The notes under the pieces are model-generated. The model was not told the origin of the DNA. It did not search any database and was given only the letters and a program-made list of their open reading frames with translations. 64,000 bases of DNA, taken from NCBI GenBank assembly GCA_040767965.1, contig JAXGNR010000009.1, forward strand, positions 37,955 through 101,954, given 5' to 3'. Below, piece by piece: positions 1,980 through 38,730 of the stretch (the first letter of the stretch is position 1; the number at the start of each line of letters is the position of its first letter). The DNA comes from Atribacterota bacterium (lineage in GTDB: Bacteria; Atribacterota; Phoenicimicrobiia; Phoenicimicrobiales; Stramentimicrobiaceae). The translations under genes and the position numbers were made by a program.

Positions 1980-2399
1980 TTTTTTTAATCAAGCGAGAAC
2001 TCCCACCTATAAGGGCAGAGGTGAGAGCATGTATCTTTACCTTTCATCCGTACTTTAATTAACAATAAGTAAAAACTTAAAAAAATTATTCTGAATTTGT
2101 TTTTTAATAATTGTTTTGTTGTATTCCATTAACAAAAAGTATTAATTAGTGCTTATTAGTCGAAAGTTCAAAAGATCCAAAAGATGATGGGAAATAATAG
2201 TCTTGCATATAATAGAGAGGAGGTTCATTACCTAAAAGAAATTACTGCGGTAAATGTTGTATTGTAATTGGATAATTGTGGTGAATAAAGATTAAGTAAT
2301 ATAAGTAATAGATGAATAATAGTGAAAAGACATTGTGGCCTCATTAGATACAAAATACGCGCATGTTTTCTGAAGGAGAAAACAATAATGATAGAAAAA

Positions 2400-3604
2400 A
2401 CTATTTCCTTATCAGTCCATCGTCTCCTGCTCTACTCTTGGACATGAATAAGATAGAGCGAAACATAAAAATGTCTCGGCTAGCAGCCGATGCGAATGTT
2501 AGATTAAGGCCACATGTTAAGATTCATGAAAGTGCAGAAATTGCCAAATGCAAATTGATGCAGGAGCGTGTGGTGTAGAAGTAGGTCCTGTGGCTCAAGC
2601 GAGTGTATGGTAAATAATGGGATTAAGGATATAAAAATTGCTCACCACAGTTATTATGGCGGACACAAGGGTGAATCACTCAAAAGAATTCTTTTGAATG
2701 GCGATGTAAAAGTCACTGTTGTAATAGATATGATTGAACAAGCTGAACAAATATCTTGTATTGGTAAAATGCTTGGTCGAGAAGTTTTCTGTAAATATAA
2801 AGATTGATACAAGTATAGTAGCAGGTGGCATTTCACGTCATGGTATCAGAACTTGATGAAGAAGCCTTAATCACCGCAGCTAGGAAGGCTTCTAGATTCC
2901 ATATTAAAGTAACAGGAATTTACGCCCATGAAATGGGTGCTGAAGCAACAGATAAGTCTTTTAGATTTCATGCTTATAAAACTCTCGAGATAATGTCAAA
3001 CTTGGCTATAAAATTTAAAAATGCCGGTATTGAATTAAATGATGTTTCTGTTGGTGCTTCCCTGAATATCGCTATACATGCAAATATCTAAGGAAAGGTA
3101 AATTCGGGAGGTAAATGAACTTCATCCAGGGGAATTTTGTGATTGGCAGTCTTGTATACTGACATCTTGGTGGTAATAAAATAGAAAATTGCGCTCTCGA
3201 AGTATGTTGGTTACAGTAATGAGTACCGCTCATCCAGACTGGGTAATGATTGATGCAGGTTATAAAGGCTTTTTCTCCTGATTATATTTTGGGAGCTGAA
3301 TGAGCGAGCTATTTCTGGGAATACAAAGGTACACCTTTACGCTTTGGTCTTAGGTAAAGAACGCACAGATTTACGGGCAGCAACATTGTGAGTGCTGAGG
3401 TACATATTTATTATATGGATCACTAAACCAAAACTAAATATTGGTGACCGCTTGGAAATTATTCCAAACAACAGCACTTGTGCTATAAATATGCATGATC
3501 CTCTATATATGGAAGTAAGAAATGGCTTTATAGAGAGAGTAATTCCTATTACCTGTGGGGTAAAGGTAACTAGTGTTACGTTCCTAAAAAATCTTTACAT
3601 TTGA
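2400..3604 (+). pseudogene. D-serine deaminase-like / alanine racemase-domain protein (DSD1 family), degraded copy 1
   Basis: Fragments PALLLDMNKIERNI, RLRPHVKIHE and C-terminal GDRLEIIPNNSTCAINMHD parallel the neighbouring copy; several frame changes. Confidence 0.5.
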
Positions 3605-3740: not shown

Positions 3741-4850
3741 ATGGATAGATATATAATTGGTTCTCGAGTTGAAGATATCGAAACACCTGCTCTATTACTT
3801 GAGCTTGATAAACTTGAATACAAGCATAATAAAATGGCAGACTTAATAAGAAAAAACAATAAATATATTAGACCACATTTTAAAACACATAAGAATCCTT
3901 TTAGCGCACAAACAACTTTCAGCGGGGCTATTGGAATTACCTGCCAGAAATTATCAGAAACAGAGGTGCTGGCAAAATCTGGAATAAAAGATATCCTTAT
4001 TACAAATGAAGTGGTGGGGAAGCAAAAATAAGAAGATTAGTAAATTTAGCTGCTTATACTGATATCAAAGTTGCGATTGATAATGAGCAAAATGCAGAAG
4101 ATATTTCTGAGATAGCTTTAGACAAAGGTGTTGTAGTAAATTATTTGGTTGAAGTTAATATAGGAATGAATCGTTGTGGGATAAGAATAGGGGAGCCAGT
4201 TGTAAATTTTATAAAAAAAATAAATAAATTACAAGGTTTAAAATTTTTAGGGATCTTCGCTTATGAAGGCCACGCTGTATTTATAGAGTCATTGGAAGAA
4301 AGGTATAAAGAAACCAATATAGCCCTTGAAAAAGTTAGTCATACCAAAGAATTACTTGAAAAGGAATCCATATTTTTTGTCAAATAATTAGTTGTGCAGG
4401 AACAGGTACTTATATGATTGCAGGGCAACACCCAGATGTTACAGAAATTGAGGCAGGCAGTTATCTAACAATGGATAGCAAATATGAAAATATAGAGGGG
4501 GTTGGGGAAACCTTTAAAACAGCTTTAAGTGTACTTACTACTATTATAAGCATTCCAAGTAATGATAGGATAATTATTGATGCTGGTTTAAAATCTATAA
4601 GTAAAGATTTTGGTATGCCGTTCTCAAAGAACAATAGAGAGATCTAAAATTGTATAAGCTTTCAGAAGAACATGGAATATTTAAGGTAAATAAAAGATAA
4701 TAATAAAAATTTTTCTTTAGGGCAAAAAATAGAATTAATTCCTAGTCATGGTTGTACAACGATAAACTTACATGATCTTTATTATGGAATTAGATCCGGC
4801 ATTGTGGAATGCATTTTGCCAATAGAAGGAAGAGGAAAAAGCTATTAGGT
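3741..4850 (+). pseudogene. D-serine deaminase-like / alanine racemase-domain protein (DSD1 family), degraded copy 2
   Basis: N-terminus PALLLELDKLEYKHNKM...RPHFKTHK, then continuation in two other frames (4145-4387, 4414-4647) and C-terminal GQKIELIPSHGCTTINLHD; breaks sit at homopolymer runs. Confidence 0.6.
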
Positions 4851-5222
4851 AATAATTTTAAAAGCAAGAAAGTTATAGGGTTATAACAGGATCTATTGTT
4901 GACAATTTAACAAAGGAACTAGGGAGTAAGACTTATAACTACCAGATTCTCCCTAGTCCATATTTATTCTCCCAAATTCAGCTATTCACCAATCCTCTGG
5001 AGGCATTTTAACGGTTTCTTCCCGAGCAAGGTATCTTTATTTATTGAATGACACAAGAGACCGTTGTTCATGCTAAGCAATTTTTTGTCTTTATGGGCCT
5101 TAGAAATAACCGTTATGTAGTTTAAGAAATTTTATGCTATAATAATAAAAAATATCAATTAAAACATTTCTTAATAATATTCCGTTATTCAGAACCTATA
5201 ATTTTAAAGGGAGGCAATATAA

Positions 5223-5810
5223 ATGATTGCTTATAAAACAGAAAAACTTAACAATGCCATTTGTTATTTTGCCAATGAAGTTTATAAGCGAAGGAAGGAA
5301 TATTTGCCCCAAACATTATTATATAAATTGCTTTCTTATTTGGATTTCACCAGTATTGAAAAATTAGGAGTCCCAGCTTTAGAGCTAAAATATCGTGCTC
5401 TTAAGAATGGCCCAGTACCTGAAGAGATATATCAAAACAAAGATGCATACGAAACTGATTGCTTTAAATTTGAGAAGAGAAGCAATAGAAGATTTATTAT
5501 TATCTCAAAGAGGGAAGCTGATTTAGATTATTTTTCAGATTTTGAAATCGAGATAATGAATGATTTATTAAACAGATATATCGGCAAAGAAAATACTATG
5601 AAAGAAATCATTGATAATATCTGTAATGATAGTCACAAAGATATCAAAGCCTGGAAAGTAGCATATGACCGGGGAAAAAATAGTGAAATGAATTATAGTG
5701 ATACATTTGAAGCAATTGACCAAAAAGATCTTGAAAATTTATCTATATCTATAAATGAAGAAAGGTTTTTAGTTTATCGCGGCTTAAAAGAAAAAACTAA
5801 ATGCAATTAG
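5223..5810 (+). CDS. Panacea (DUF4065)-like domain protein, putative antitoxin
   Basis: 195 aa; motif KLLSYLDF...GVPALELKYRALKNGPVPEEIY resembles the DUF4065/SocA-type signature; RBS-like GGGAGG upstream. Confidence 0.55.
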   Translation: MIAYKTEKLNNAICYFANEVYKRRKEYLPQTLLYKLLSYLDFTSIEKLGVPALELKYRALKNGPVPEEIYQNKDAYETDCFKFEKRSNRRFIIISKREADLDYFSDFEIEIMNDLLNRYIGKENTMKEIIDNICNDSHKDIKAWKVAYDRGKNSEMNYSDTFEAIDQKDLENLSISINEERFLVYRGLKEKTKCN

Positions 5811-6145
5811 GTTCAGTATTTATTTGGAAAAATTTCCCCCACGGTAAAGATGGTACCATTAAAGATAGATATTTTGTATATGTTGGAGAAAGCCATTTCC
5901 CCGTTAACCCTGTACATATATTTTTAATTACTACAACAACTAGAAAAATGTATTATGCAACAGGTGGTTCTAGAGAAAAGCATAATATTTACAAGTTTAA
6001 AGCTGGTTCTTTTGGTTTTGTGGAAGATTGTATTTTAGATATTGATTTTCTTCAATCTAATATAAAAAAAAGTGCTTTTGACTCCTGTCAAAATGAAATA
6101 AAAGAGGTTGGTAAACTTCCGGAGAAAGAATTGAAAGAAATATAA
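5801..6145 (+). CDS. Small protein with MazF/PemK-like signature, putative toxin partner
   Basis: 114 aa; ATG overlaps the upstream stop by 10 nt; GSVFIWKNFPHGKDGTIKDRYFVYVG and ITTTTRK align by eye with MazF/EndoA N-terminal strands. Confidence 0.4.
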   Translation: MQLGSVFIWKNFPHGKDGTIKDRYFVYVGESHFPVNPVHIFLITTTTRKMYYATGGSREKHNIYKFKAGSFGFVEDCILDIDFLQSNIKKSAFDSCQNEIKEVGKLPEKELKEI

Positions 6146-6847
6146 TATATAATTTAATATTAAAATCTAAATACATAAACTTAAAGGCTAAACAAGATAT
6201 TTATATTAGCTATAACCACGCAAATATAATAGGTCTAAAGAGACCAAAAAGAAAATAAATAAAAAAGAATAAGTAAATAATGGAATCAGATACTGTCTTG
6301 AAAATCAACTCAAAACTATTCTTTAAGGATACGAAGAAATGTCCCCTGTATCGATTCTTTTTAGCTAGATGATAGATATTTTACTCTCTTACCGGAAATG
6401 TTTTAATAACTTAATACTATCTTCTTTCTTAGAGCTAGTGCTGTATAAGATGATTATAGCTGGTAATTTGAGCAAATTAATTAAACATGGATATCTTCTT
6501 CTCTTTTTTGAAGATTTCTAGTATTGCTATTAATTGCTTGTTTAACATCTCCTTACCCTCCCTGCCATAGTAAAGAGCTTTGTTCTCTCAATATAGAGGG
6601 GAGAAATCCCCTATAATTAAAATAATTTAGAGTACTTTTGCGTTTGAGGTATCGATAAAACTTGGAATACTTTTTTGATGAGGCAATTCAATATTTTGAC
6701 ATATTATTTAAACCATAATAAAATTGTAGCCATAAATAACTACATAATTATAGATATATTTACAAAAAAGAATCAAAATTAAGAAAAACATGGATACAGA
6801 GAACCGTTTCCTGTATCCTTCCTCAAAAATGTGAAGGAGGATTAAAC

Positions 6848-7864
6848 ATGGATATGCTTAAAGATAGCAGATATAATTTGAAGCCGGAGTTTCCGCCGCA
6901 TCTGTCTCTTGGAGTAAGCAAGGAAAAATTCATGCTGAAAACATGTGCAATCATGTCCATTCCATTGATCCTGGGGGTACTTGCAATTGGATGGCAAGCG
7001 CTTTGGCAGATCCTTATATCTTCCGGAACGGTTTTGATCCTGCATACTTTAATACAGTTTTGGGAAAGTCAGACAGAACGCCGTGTTTCATATCCTACAC
7101 CTGCATCACCGTTGGTACTGGCCTTGATAGTAGGTTTGAGTATGCCGGCTTCATCGCCATATACTGTGACTGTCGGAGTGGCTGCACTGGCTATGGTGAT
7201 ATTTAAATATTTACAAGGAAGAATTTTTACGCGCAAATTTGTAAATCCTGCTGCTGCTGCAAAAGCGGTGTTGTTGACAATGCTTTCACTTATGATATTT
7301 TTTGAAAATCCCCTTCGGGTAGGCATGCTCTACCATCCCCATCACTTGAATCTGGATTTGTTGTCTTCAGCTGGATTTGCTAGTGCGATTTCATTCTATG
7401 AAACTGATACTTTGACGGCTGTGCAGAGCCTGATCTTTTGGAAAACCCACGGTTGGATTGGTGGCGCTTCCGGGCTGGGAACGCTTGTTGCGGGAATAAT
7501 AGCCTGTTTCTGGATTAGACTTAAATGACGCATTCCCTTAGCTTTTCTTTCAGTAATGACTGTACTTTCAACAGGAATGGGGCTTTTTACGGGAGGAGAT
7601 CCTCTATCGCGTATTGCCCTGCATGTCTTTACCGGAAGTACTATTTTTCTGGCGTTTTTTATGGCTACCGAGCCTCAATCTACACCAATGCCGGAAAAAA
7701 GTCAGTACCTATTTGGTATCTCTTTAGCTGTACTTACTTTTGTTTTACAGCTGGCAGGAGTACTGGGTGGGTCTATTATTGCCCTGGTAATTTTAAATTT
7801 ATTCACTCCCTGGTTAGATAAAATTGGTCATAAAAGAGCTATAGGTATGAAAGGAGGCAAGTAG
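6848..7864 (+). pseudogene. rnfD: RnfD/NqrB-family membrane subunit interrupted by in-frame TGA at 7526-7528
   Basis: ORFs 6848-7528 and 7556-7864 are in the same frame; C-terminal FFMATEPQSTP matches the RnfD FFMATDP motif; combined length about 330 aa. Confidence 0.6.
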
Positions 7865-7865
7865 T

Positions 7866-9152
7866 ATGCGCAGGTATTATGAAGAAAAACAAGGCTTCAG
7901 GATTGATGCTAAAATGAAGTTAGGCCTGGAACAAAATGCCTTCGAAGTAATTCCAACACCTCCGGCGATAATAGTTTTCCTGGATCAACATGTTGGATTT
8001 CCTGGAAAGCCGCTGGTAAAAGAAGGAGACCGAGTCTTAACGGGCCAAAAAATATCTGATGGCGAGAAAAAGCTCACATTACCTGTGCACAGTCCTATTA
8101 CCGGTAGGGTGACCGGATTTGTTGAACTACGCCATCCTATTTCAGGAAAATTGAAGCACGCTGTAGCTATCGAAGCAGAAGGAGAAGAAGAGTGGATTCT
8201 TATGAAGCAGTATCCAAACTTTAAATCTTTAAGTAACCAGGAGATAATCAAACGAGTGCGGGAAGCCGGAATAGTAGGACTGGGTGGGGCTGCTTTTCCA
8301 ACATATATGAAATTATCCAGAGGATCTGATGTGGATCATCTGATTATAAATGCTAAAGAAAGTGATCCCAACCTTGCCTGTGATATTCGGTTGGCTCTTG
8401 AACAACCTGAAGAATTGATTAATGGGATCGAGATTATGGCTCGCGCTCTGGAGGTAGAGAAAGTTACTTTTGCTACCAGAACTGAAGAAGGTGAACTCCT
8501 TCAATTTGAAAAGCTTTTAAAAGAGCGAGGAATAAAAATTGCTCATATCAGACCTTCGTATTCGATAGGTAGTGAACGTCTGCTGGTACGTGAATTGTTG
8601 GGCAGAGAGGTGCCAGTCGATCAATACCCTCCGGATGTTGGTGTTGTGGTGCATAATGTGGCCACCTGTTTTGCAACCAGTGAAGCTGTTATTAAAGGTA
8701 AACCTCTTATTTCCAGAGGTATAACTTTTTATTCCAGTAAAACCGGAGGAAGAAACTTATGGGTAAGAATGGGCACTCCAATTGAACATATTCTGAACTA
8801 CATGAATATTTCTTCTGAGAACATAGATCGGGTTATCCTGGGATCAATAATGATGGGCAAAGGCGCACCTGATTTAAAAACACCCATGCTTAAGTGTTTT
8901 GCTGGCGTGGTAGCATTAACTTCCGATGAACATAGTTTATATAAAAACCCATCTCCGTGTATACGCTGTGGTTATTGTGATTCGATTTGTCCTGTGAATA
9001 TTTATCCATCTTTGCTTCTGGAAGCATTGGAAAAAGGCAGGACTGAGATCCTTGATTCTCTTAATATTAACTCATGTATAGACTGCAATCTTTGTTCTTA
9101 TGTATGCCCTTCTTCAATCAGAGTCAACCCCAAACAAAGAATGATGGGATAA
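7866..9152 (+). CDS. rnfC: RnfC-like electron transport subunit with two 4Fe-4S ferredoxin motifs
   Basis: 428 aa; GIVGLGGAAFPTYMKL motif; CIRCGYCDSICP and CIDCNLCSYVCP cysteine clusters; starts 2 nt after the rnfD-like ORF. Confidence 0.75.
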   Translation: MRRYYEEKQGFRIDAKMKLGLEQNAFEVIPTPPAIIVFLDQHVGFPGKPLVKEGDRVLTGQKISDGEKKLTLPVHSPITGRVTGFVELRHPISGKLKHAVAIEAEGEEEWILMKQYPNFKSLSNQEIIKRVREAGIVGLGGAAFPTYMKLSRGSDVDHLIINAKESDPNLACDIRLALEQPEELINGIEIMARALEVEKVTFATRTEEGELLQFEKLLKERGIKIAHIRPSYSIGSERLLVRELLGREVPVDQYPPDVGVVVHNVATCFATSEAVIKGKPLISRGITFYSSKTGGRNLWVRMGTPIEHILNYMNISSENIDRVILGSIMMGKGAPDLKTPMLKCFAGVVALTSDEHSLYKNPSPCIRCGYCDSICPVNIYPSLLLEALEKGRTEILDSLNINSCIDCNLCSYVCPSSIRVNPKQRMMG

Positions 9153-37575: not shown

Positions 37576-38730
37576 TTACTGTACTGGAAATTCAGCTGAG
37601 CCATCAGGACGAAGACCATCAAGCATATATTCTGCCTGTGTCTGTGTTAGCTCATAGCCAGTATATATGCTATAAAAATCCCTGATTTCTTCAATCATTG
37701 CTTTTCTGTTAATAACGTTTACCCAGGCAATTTCAGGTTGGATGCGCATCAGAGCATAGTGGATTTGTAGTTGACTTTCCAGCCCAAAACGGTCCCAGTT
37801 AAAACAACCATAAGGGTTTGTGTATAATCTTTCATTAGATAAAGCCTTTAAATCTTTCCAGCCATCAGTGCTTTCCAGAACGTTTTTATTTATATGCTGA
37901 TAAACACCTGCACATATTATTACATCAGGATTTAAATCCCAGATAGCCTCTGGAGTTACTTCTCCGGAGCTTAGCTTCATTACCTCCGCAGCATTATTAC
38001 CTCCTGCAGATTCGATCCAATCAGAAATGATACTTCCTGCAGCCATAGTAGTGGTTACACTATCTGTTTGCCCAGCAATGTAATAGACGACCGGGCGATC
38101 ATTTTCTGCCAGACCTGAAGTTACCTTTCTTATCCCGGATAATTTGCTTTCAACTGCAGAACACCAATGATTAAGTTTTTCCTGATATTCCCCCCCAAGC
38201 ACTTCACCAAGGACAGTGTATGCCTTAACCATACTTTCATAGTCACTGAAATTGATATTTATAGCAGGAATACCAACATCACGAATTTGTTGAGCAAGAC
38301 CGCTGGCTGCAGTGGTTGGATGTATGATAACCAGATCAGGTTCTAAGTTTATCAGATTTTCAATTGCTGGAGTTATACCTCCCAGAGCGGGAATATTGAC
38401 ACAATCCGGATAAAAAAGTTGGGTCCAGGAGTTCATTGTTCCCGGATTGTTGACAGCCAGTCCAACTATTAGATCCCCAGCTCCCATTACAAAAAATGAG
38501 GATGTTCCTGCCGGCCATAAGTTAACAATTCTCTTAATTTCACCGGTTATGGTTACTGTATCACCACTCATATCCGTAACTGTAACTGTTTTATCAGCAG
38601 CGACAGAATTTATAACGGAAAACGCAATTGCAGTAAAGAAAATAAGTAGCAAAGCAAGTGTTTTAATTGTGATAGTGGTTTTTTTTGTTTTCATTATATT
38701 ACTTCTCCTTTTTATTGTTATATTCATCAT
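37576..38730 (-). CDS. ABC transporter substrate-binding protein, class 8 (BtuF/FhuD-like)
   Basis: Signal peptide after MKTKKTT; true start may be the internal Met. Confidence 0.8.
   Translation of the reverse strand: MMNITIKRRSNIMKTKKTTITIKTLALLLIFFTAIAFSVINSVAADKTVTVTDMSGDTVTITGEIKRIVNLWPAGTSSFFVMGAGDLIVGLAVNNPGTMNSWTQLFYPDCVNIPALGGITPAIENLINLEPDLVIIHPTTAASGLAQQIRDVGIPAININFSDYESMVKAYTVLGEVLGGEYQEKLNHWCSAVESKLSGIRKVTSGLAENDRPVVYYIAGQTDSVTTTMAAGSIISDWIESAGGNNAAEVMKLSSGEVTPEAIWDLNPDVIICAGVYQHINKNVLESTDGWKDLKALSNERLYTNPYGCFNWDRFGLESQLQIHYALMRIQPEIAWVNVINRKAMIEEIRDFYSIYTGYELTQTQAEYMLDGLRPDGSAEFPVQ

Follow-up and report, generated by a model that had tools for sequence, protein, structure and literature searches.

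A Panacea-type antitoxin gene paired with a frameshifted, probably MazF-fold toxin gene in an Atribacterota genome

The present analysis concerns a pair of overlapping genes, panA (ORF1) and panT (ORF2), on the forward strand of contig JAXGNR010000009.1 of an Atribacterota bacterium (assembly GCA_040767965.1), within a stretch of 64,000 nucleotides (contig positions 37,955 to 101,954) that we refer to as the window and to which all coordinates apply. We consider it likely that the pair is a type II toxin-antitoxin (TA) operon of the PanAT type, in which a Panacea-domain antitoxin is encoded ahead of a divergent MazF-fold toxin, probably a ribonuclease (RNase), and that the toxin gene was recently truncated amid local gene loss. 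As such, the locus does not represent a new kind of module, and the copy in this window is probably not a working one. The initial annotation, made from the DNA letters and their open reading frames (ORFs), had proposed a candidate new module; the combination of a Panacea gene with a MazF-like gene has already been published (PMC8832971), and the window copy is decaying. What may be new is the toxin family itself, which falls outside all curated hidden Markov model (HMM) libraries tested, is longer than MazF and has so far been seen in uncultured lineages only.

Gene structure, truncation of panT and local gene decay

The two ORFs and their overlap, as initially described, were recovered from the sequence. 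The first gene, panA, spans 5223-5810 (+) and encodes a full-length protein of 195 aa (ATG start, TAG stop at 5808-5810), and the truncated panT spans 5801-6145 (+), with an ATG at 5801 and a premature TAA at 6143-6145, and encodes 114 aa that correspond to the first 114 codons of a MazF-fold toxin of about 149 aa. The genes share the 10 nt ATGCAATTAG (5801-5810, +), an arrangement that probably reflects translational coupling. ORF1 matches the PF13274 SocA_Panacea (DUF4065) HMM over residues 33-121 (E 2e-9; 38.8 bits against a gathering score of 25.7), which substantiates the Panacea-like signature that had been recognised by eye, and it also matches phrog_1281 (E 6.7e-14). The protein has no N-terminal helix-turn-helix (HTH) or other added domain and carries a C-terminal extension of about 75 aa. 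It is collinear with, and full length relative to, 8 orthologues from related loci, the nearest of which is the L001 copy (92% identical). The sole departure is an in-frame insertion of two residues through a 6-nt tandem duplication (TCTATA-TCTATA, 5742-5753), by which the window copy reads 'SISI' where 8/8 orthologues read 'SI' or equivalent. Judging from its sequence, ORF1 is an intact PanA-type protein.

The initial description of two intact ORFs thus holds for ORF1 and fails for ORF2. Nearly all close relatives of ORF2 are 146-152 aa long, and the window copy stops at residue 114, about 35 residues short. The source of the frameshift is a tandem 5-nt duplication, ATATA-ATATA (6140-6149, +), by which an ancestral GAA-ATATA-TAATTTA (E I Y N L) became GAA-ATATA-ATATA-TAATTTA and acquired an in-frame ATA-TAA. 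In DNA alignments, a 5-nt gap lies opposite the duplication in 4/4 intact relatives as well as in L018, the closest relative at the DNA level, whose product P0001 is 89% identical to the window toxin, and the insertion is unique to the window. The missing C-terminus is still present out of frame: translation of the other frames revealed the remnant YNLILKSKYINLKAKQDIYISYNHANIIGLKRPKRK followed by a stop (6148-6258, +; -1 frame). It runs through 36 codons without a stop (p ~0.03 given the local base composition) and shares 30/36 residues with P0001. Because the remnant is still open and this similar to P0001, the duplication is recent. The remnant covers positions that are conserved over 126 diverse members of the family, namely Y115, I118, K129, D131, I132, G140 and the GLKxP motif. 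As it stands, ORF2 is not an intact member of its own family of about 149 aa, the conserved C-terminal 35 residues being out of frame.

Programmed frameshifting was considered and rejected as an account of this arrangement. A -1 shift would be needed, yet the sequence ...TTG AAA GAA ATA TAA lacks a slippery site of the form X XXY YYZ; in addition, the relatives all encode the toxin in a single frame without the insertion.

The AT-rich and decayed setting attributed to the pair was confirmed, with a GC content of 0.26-0.30 around panA and panT and several broken genes nearby. The DctM (TRAP transporter) gene at 687-1979 is in at least three pieces, as is an Ala-racemase-N/D-Ser-dehydratase-like gene at ~3741-4850, which contains several stops and frame changes, and in an RnfD-like gene at 6848-7864 a single in-frame TGA (7526-7528) separates ORFs of 226 and 102 aa. 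Open frames of at least 120 codons account for 0.22 of the first 4-kb bin of the window and for 0.47 of the second, compared with about 0.8-0.9 of most others (range 0.58-0.98). The first 8 kb of the window are thus a local island of gene decay. An alternative genetic code with TGA as a sense codon was considered as the source of the apparent decay and rejected: TGA is a normal stop here, and most of the gene fragments end in TAA or TAG. Since TGA terminates 10/38 long ORFs, the standard code applies and the breaks are true lesions. Next to the split RnfD gene, RnfC (7866-9152) looks intact, and the RnfD break itself has the appearance of a nonsense mutation that hit a gene for energy conservation.

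Decay that is confined to the toxin was found a second time. In L025-L027, panA is intact and a single extra nucleotide behind codon 15 of the toxin gene (...TCT CAT AGT T AAA GAT...) leaves just a C-terminal ORF of 100 aa; the same form is present on 14 contigs from several samples (L025, 3281-4303). The lesions of the window and of L025 are independent, and both hit the toxin with the antitoxin kept, which fits ordinary toxin-antitoxin logic: decay of the toxin first is the expected order because prior loss of the antitoxin would be lethal. The two copies therefore represent two natural examples of toxin-first, antitoxin-retained decay.

These observations bear on the question of whether the frameshift is a sequencing or assembly artefact, in which case the module would be functional and the real gene would encode a toxin of 149 aa. 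In its favour, the remnant is still stop-free with 30/36 residues identical to P0001, AT-rich short repeats can be miscalled and the allele was found in no other assembly. However, a 5-nt tandem duplication as clean as this one is not an error in homopolymer length, and the neighbouring nonsense codons, such as the TGA in the RnfD-like gene, together with the multiple frame breaks cannot all be indel artefacts, while the rest of the window consists mostly of normal long ORFs. The independent toxin-only frameshift on 14 contigs indicates that decay of this kind occurs naturally. We thus regard an artefact as unlikely.

The antitoxin and the toxin have not diverged equally between the window and L001: ORF1 is 92% identical and ORF2 72-74%, with the toxin divergence lying mostly in residues 83-114. 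This is the reverse of the usual pattern, in which the antitoxin evolves faster; recombination is one possible reason, and relaxed selection on the toxin another. The ATATA and TCTATA duplications are, in addition, two small AT-rich tandem duplications within one operon, suggesting slippage-prone replication.

Family and predicted fold of the toxin

ORF2 gave no match to the HMMs of Pfam, PADLOC, NCBIfam or PHROGs or to PDB sequences, even at E<=10. Its close homologues form 46 clusters, all of them unannotated and a few from Atribacteria/Atribacterota metagenome-assembled genomes (MAGs), and an exhaustive profile search extended the family to 256 clusters (50% identity) at E<=1e-3, 165 of them at E<=1e-10. 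With so many homologues, in 46 close and 256 distant clusters, a chance origin of these open frames is ruled out. Members are almost all 145-165 aa long and cover the whole profile, and no full-length member ends near residue 114. A search for related loci with one alignment of the family returned only three, all in Atribacterota MAGs. All sources of the family that were found are metagenomes or MAGs, with Atribacterota as the named ones, and no close relatives were present in the phage, plasmid and IMG/VR collections.

The fold was predicted with AlphaFold2 (AF2) for the intact relative P0001, using an alignment of 43 sequences, and the resulting model is confident (pLDDT 85.2, pTM 0.81). It begins with three strands and a helix, continues with three more strands, the second and third of which are separated by a short helix, and ends in a pair of C-terminal helices. 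A Foldseek search against the PDB returned only MazF, EndoA and Kid chains among its top 40 matches (best E 2.5e-4, probability 1.00), with target-normalised TM scores of 0.57-0.70 for the PDB matches, and PemK-like endoribonucleases ranked first in a viral structure library. Based on this model, the ORF2 family is predicted to have the SH3-like beta-barrel fold of MazF, Kid and CcdB with a C-terminal helix.

Remote homology to MazF was probed by profile-profile comparison. We built a small MazF profile (11 sequences; MazF/Kid/ChpBK/EndoA) on seven textbook sequences, which as positive controls scored 85-131 bits against PF02452; among them, the B. subtilis MazF sequence was confirmed by a 100% database match and is that of PDB 4ME7/4MDX. 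The database matches listed for B. subtilis MazF were all at least 94% identical, and hence unfit for a diverse profile and not used. Aligned with hhalign, the 126-member family profile matched this MazF profile with a probability of 77.7% (E 1.9e-5) over 107 columns, covering MazF 2-111, compared with 0.1% and E ~0.5 for the reversed-profile controls and with 2.3% when the close subfamily alone was used. The link to MazF came solely from structure prediction and profile-profile comparison; the direct HMM and PDB-sequence scans were empty. The initial annotation's view of ORF2 as a divergent MazF/PemK protein thus holds at the level of the predicted fold (AF2 and Foldseek) and not at that of a PF02452 sequence match, neither for ORF2 nor for its 126 relatives.

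In the hhalign register, which is identical to that of the by-eye alignment made at the outset, R23 corresponds to Arg25 and T44 to Thr48 of B. subtilis MazF, and the helix at 108-121 to the MazF C-terminal helix; the catalytic register comes from this sequence-profile alignment and not from structural superposition. These two MazF residues form its catalytic pair (PMC7354611). Over the 126 members, R23 is conserved in 85%, T44 in 79% (with a further 6% Ser) and T46 in 99%, and G4, W9, K21, G29, R58 and D80 each in 90-98%. The canonical Arg-Pro, said initially to be lacking, is Arg-Tyr or Arg-Trp in the ORF2 family, so that the arginine is in fact present and it is the proline that is replaced. 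RNase activity of the intact protein would be in keeping with this pattern.

The same fold might be used without RNA cleavage, either for gyrase poisoning in the manner of CcdB or in a type III system of the ToxN/CptN kind with an RNA antitoxin. Comparison with the CcdB profile (PF01845) by hhalign gave a probability of 0.1%. A type III arrangement as in ToxIN, CptIN or AbiQ was rejected, as the interval 4600-6900 is free of tandem repeats, neither a direct-repeat family of that sort nor an Rfam match was found, and the gene upstream of the toxin is the protein-coding panA. We consider this group of mechanisms very improbable.

The break in panT falls in the middle of the helix at 108-120, which is aligned to the C-terminal helix of MazF, and the truncation costs the protein half of that helix, along with its basic tail and an additional helix that is specific to the family. 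The 114-aa product could still be a fully or partly active toxin, and the pair could then work as a TA or defence module. Every conserved residue of the N-terminus and the core, R23, T44, T46, K21, R58 and D80 among them, is retained, the strands of the beta-barrel core extend to residue 105 and hence lie upstream of the break, and panA is intact and preceded by a conserved promoter-like motif and Shine-Dalgarno (SD) sequence. However, the break interrupts the equivalent of a MazF helix, the lost 35 residues are conserved over 126 members, none of the full-length members is of a similarly reduced length, and the surrounding region is decaying. On balance, activity of the 114-aa product seems unlikely, and loss of toxin function through the truncation would be the more natural outcome.

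Compared with canonical MazF, members of the ORF2 family are about 35-40 aa longer, a conserved additional helix and a basic tail (GLKxPKRK) being present at the C-terminus. Here we speculate that the family might be a distinct, undescribed branch of the MazF fold in which the extra helix and tail give a different target or control, and that PanA-PanT pairs of Atribacterota and other uncultured lineages act in abortive infection. For instance, these elements may serve in docking to the ribosome or tRNA, or the tail may be the part through which PanA senses a phage cue, and the repeated decay of the toxin only may then reflect a fitness cost. We see such a scenario as possible though improbable, and favour a PanAT-type operon with a divergent MazF-fold toxin.

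Conserved linkage with Panacea genes and published PanAT systems

A PF13274 gene encoding 188-193 aa lies directly upstream of the toxin gene, on the same strand, in every related locus examined. The linkage holds for eight toxin lineages, with toxins that are 72, 58, 56, 55, 56, 39, 36 and 26% identical to the window toxin or P0001. The 10-nt overlap recurs in L001-L006 and L010-L017, other relatives have a 4-nt overlap, and one has a gap of 22 nt. The flanking genes differ from locus to locus and often encode restriction-modification (R-M) subunits, transposases, integrases, reverse transcriptase, RhuM or other TA proteins; no conserved third gene stands beside the pair in the related loci examined. 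Taken together, the comparison of these loci indicates that panA and the ORF2-family gene belong to one module of two genes, which is conserved and resembles a toxin-antitoxin system.

The name 'Panacea' for DUF4065 was introduced by Kurata et al. 2022 (PMC8832971), who distinguished 88 clusters among the partner toxins, with antitoxin-first loci being the commoner order (943 vs 325). According to that paper, PanT clusters include PemK (by CDD) and EndoA/PemK/MazF-like toxins (by HHpred), pairs from Pseudomonas moraviensis and Bifidobacterium ruminantium were validated as TA systems with specific inhibition of protein synthesis, and PanA-PanT complexes were demonstrated by pull-down (PMC8832971). 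The initial annotation had reasoned that MazF-type toxins do not normally have Panacea partners, which is contradicted by clusters T5, T6 and T25 and by the two validated pairs of that study. In its Dataset S1, the MazF-like clusters T5, T6 and T25 (representatives WP_116809181.1, WP_083201923.1 and WP_026646888.1) have a PanA without an N-terminal domain and the order antitoxin-toxin, with overlaps of 1-4 nt and a spacing that reaches from a 4-nt overlap to a 9-nt gap among the rows listed; the rows listed contain no Atribacterota (PMC8832971). A PanAT locus is defined there as a two-gene architecture with the partner within 100 nt that is conserved across several genomes (PMC8832971), and panA has its partner within that distance and in an architecture conserved over several genomes. 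Ernits et al. 2023 (PMC10440598) further reported direct neutralisation by a stand-alone Panacea protein and counted MazF/PemK with the folds that recur most often in the network.

The pair shares with the T5, T6 and T25 systems the stand-alone PF13274 antitoxin, the antitoxin-then-toxin order, the small overlap, a MazF-like toxin that possibly lacks CDD/Pfam matches, and the organisation as a two-gene module in variable, mobile-looking neighbourhoods. It differs in that the window panT is frameshifted and in that the profile relation to MazF is much weaker (78% by hhalign, against 99.5% by HHpred for T5). The ORF2 family is set apart from these clusters through their descriptions and not their sequences, and may coincide with one of them. 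In contrast to MazEF, PemIK and Kis-Kid, the partner of ORF2 is a Panacea protein and not a MazE, PemI or Kis antitoxin of the AbrB or ribbon-helix-helix (RHH) type. From MazF, EndoA and Kid proteins of PF02452, the family is distinguished by 0/126 members matching that model, by Arg-Tyr/Trp for Arg-Pro and by the extra C-terminal structure, and its enzymatic activity is predicted. With SocAB of Caulobacter crescentus, whose SocA is the founding Panacea antitoxin, the locus has the SocA_Panacea domain of the antitoxin in common. SocB is an unrelated toxin that hits the replication clamp, and SocA is a ClpXP proteolytic adaptor rather than a simple binder. Nothing at the window locus points to the SocAB mechanism.

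In the model that we favour, panA and panT would be transcribed as one message, PanA first and PanT second, probably from a TGnTATAAT motif upstream of panA, and the position of the PanT start within the end of panA would probably couple their translation. Intact PanT (~149 aa) would most likely act as a metal-independent endoribonuclease that blocks translation, and PanA would hold it inactive by direct protein-protein binding, by analogy with the tested PanAT pairs; the module might possibly be a phage-defence operon. In the window, the ATATA duplication has shifted the panT frame after codon 114, with panA kept intact.

A related arrangement is found in P0176 and P0336 (361 aa, from two independent assemblies), in which a Panacea-like N-terminal half is fused to an ORF2-family toxin half. 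These proteins have Leu at the R23 position (KNLYF), and Panacea is not among the Pfam families listed for them. They could represent a CapRel-like fused toxin-antitoxin or a gene-calling artefact of a frameshift.

Several results weigh against the interpretation as a decayed PanAT operon with a MazF-fold toxin. ORF2 found no PDB sequence as a single query, and the family profile found none at E<=10; among 126 diverse relatives there were 0 matches to PF02452 PemK_toxin, CcdB or other relevant Pfam models at E<=1. The fold assignment comes from a predicted structure, and the hhalign probability is just 78% for the full family and 2.3% with the close subfamily alone. R23 is replaced by another residue in 15% of members. 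A single-chain AF2 model of P0176 reached a pTM of 0.52, with a pLDDT below 50 for the Panacea half, and contained no reliable PanA:PanT interface. That the 114-aa product would be unstable or inactive is something we infer from the sequence. In addition, two metagenome DNA scans, covering the allele and near-identical loci, recovered the frameshifted allele from no independent assembly, and exact-protein look-ups for ORF1 and ORF2 found no other copy.

If the proposed explanation is true, a sizeable unannotated family (256 clusters at 50% identity without a Pfam, NCBIfam, PADLOC or PHROG model) would join the MazF-fold toxins that are neutralised by Panacea antitoxins, and the 'hyperpromiscuous antitoxin' picture would reach the Atribacterota and other uncultured lineages. 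The sequences would thus provide material for a new profile HMM and better annotation. No new principle is involved, as the literature already contains this architecture, this combination of partners and the likely mechanism, and the pairing would not surprise a specialist; the value is modest and lies in annotation and in the understanding of how TA modules are lost.

Upstream signals and genomic neighbourhoods

About 80 nt upstream of panA lies an extended -10-like motif, TGCTATAAT (5135-5143, +), and an SD sequence, GGGAGG (5209-5214, +), is found 8 nt before the ORF1 ATG. The core ATATGnTATAnT of the former is common to 7/7 aligned upstream regions, the DNA of which is otherwise divergent, and the full TGnTATAAT is present in 6/7 loci; the deviating locus is L025, which is one base off and reads TGATATAGT in its place. 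The GGAGG of the SD is kept in 7/7 aligned loci (window, L001, L007, L010, L013, L017 and L025). The -10-like motif surfaced through the comparison between loci only: a generic scan for -35/-10 promoters and terminators did not rise above the shuffled background and gave no score to TGCTATAAT. The TGnTATAAT motif is therefore best described as a putative promoter element. A motif and SD that are conserved in otherwise divergent DNA are the signature of an autonomous, mobile two-gene operon. The 5' untranslated region (UTR) of panA contains further conserved patches, such as CATTCTTCATC-like stretches, that could be an operator.

The neighbourhoods of two groups of relatives are worth describing. 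In L001-L006, the closest relative with full context, genes for HsdR (type I restriction), an RVT_1 reverse transcriptase and a RhuM-family protein lie upstream of the pair and NTP_transf_2 lies downstream, and the neighbourhood resembles a defence island. Upstream of the pair in L025, and divergent from it, another Panacea gene, whose product has an N-terminal HTH domain (2106-2906, minus strand), is accompanied by a Gp49/HTH pair, and the region is a cluster of toxin-antitoxin genes.

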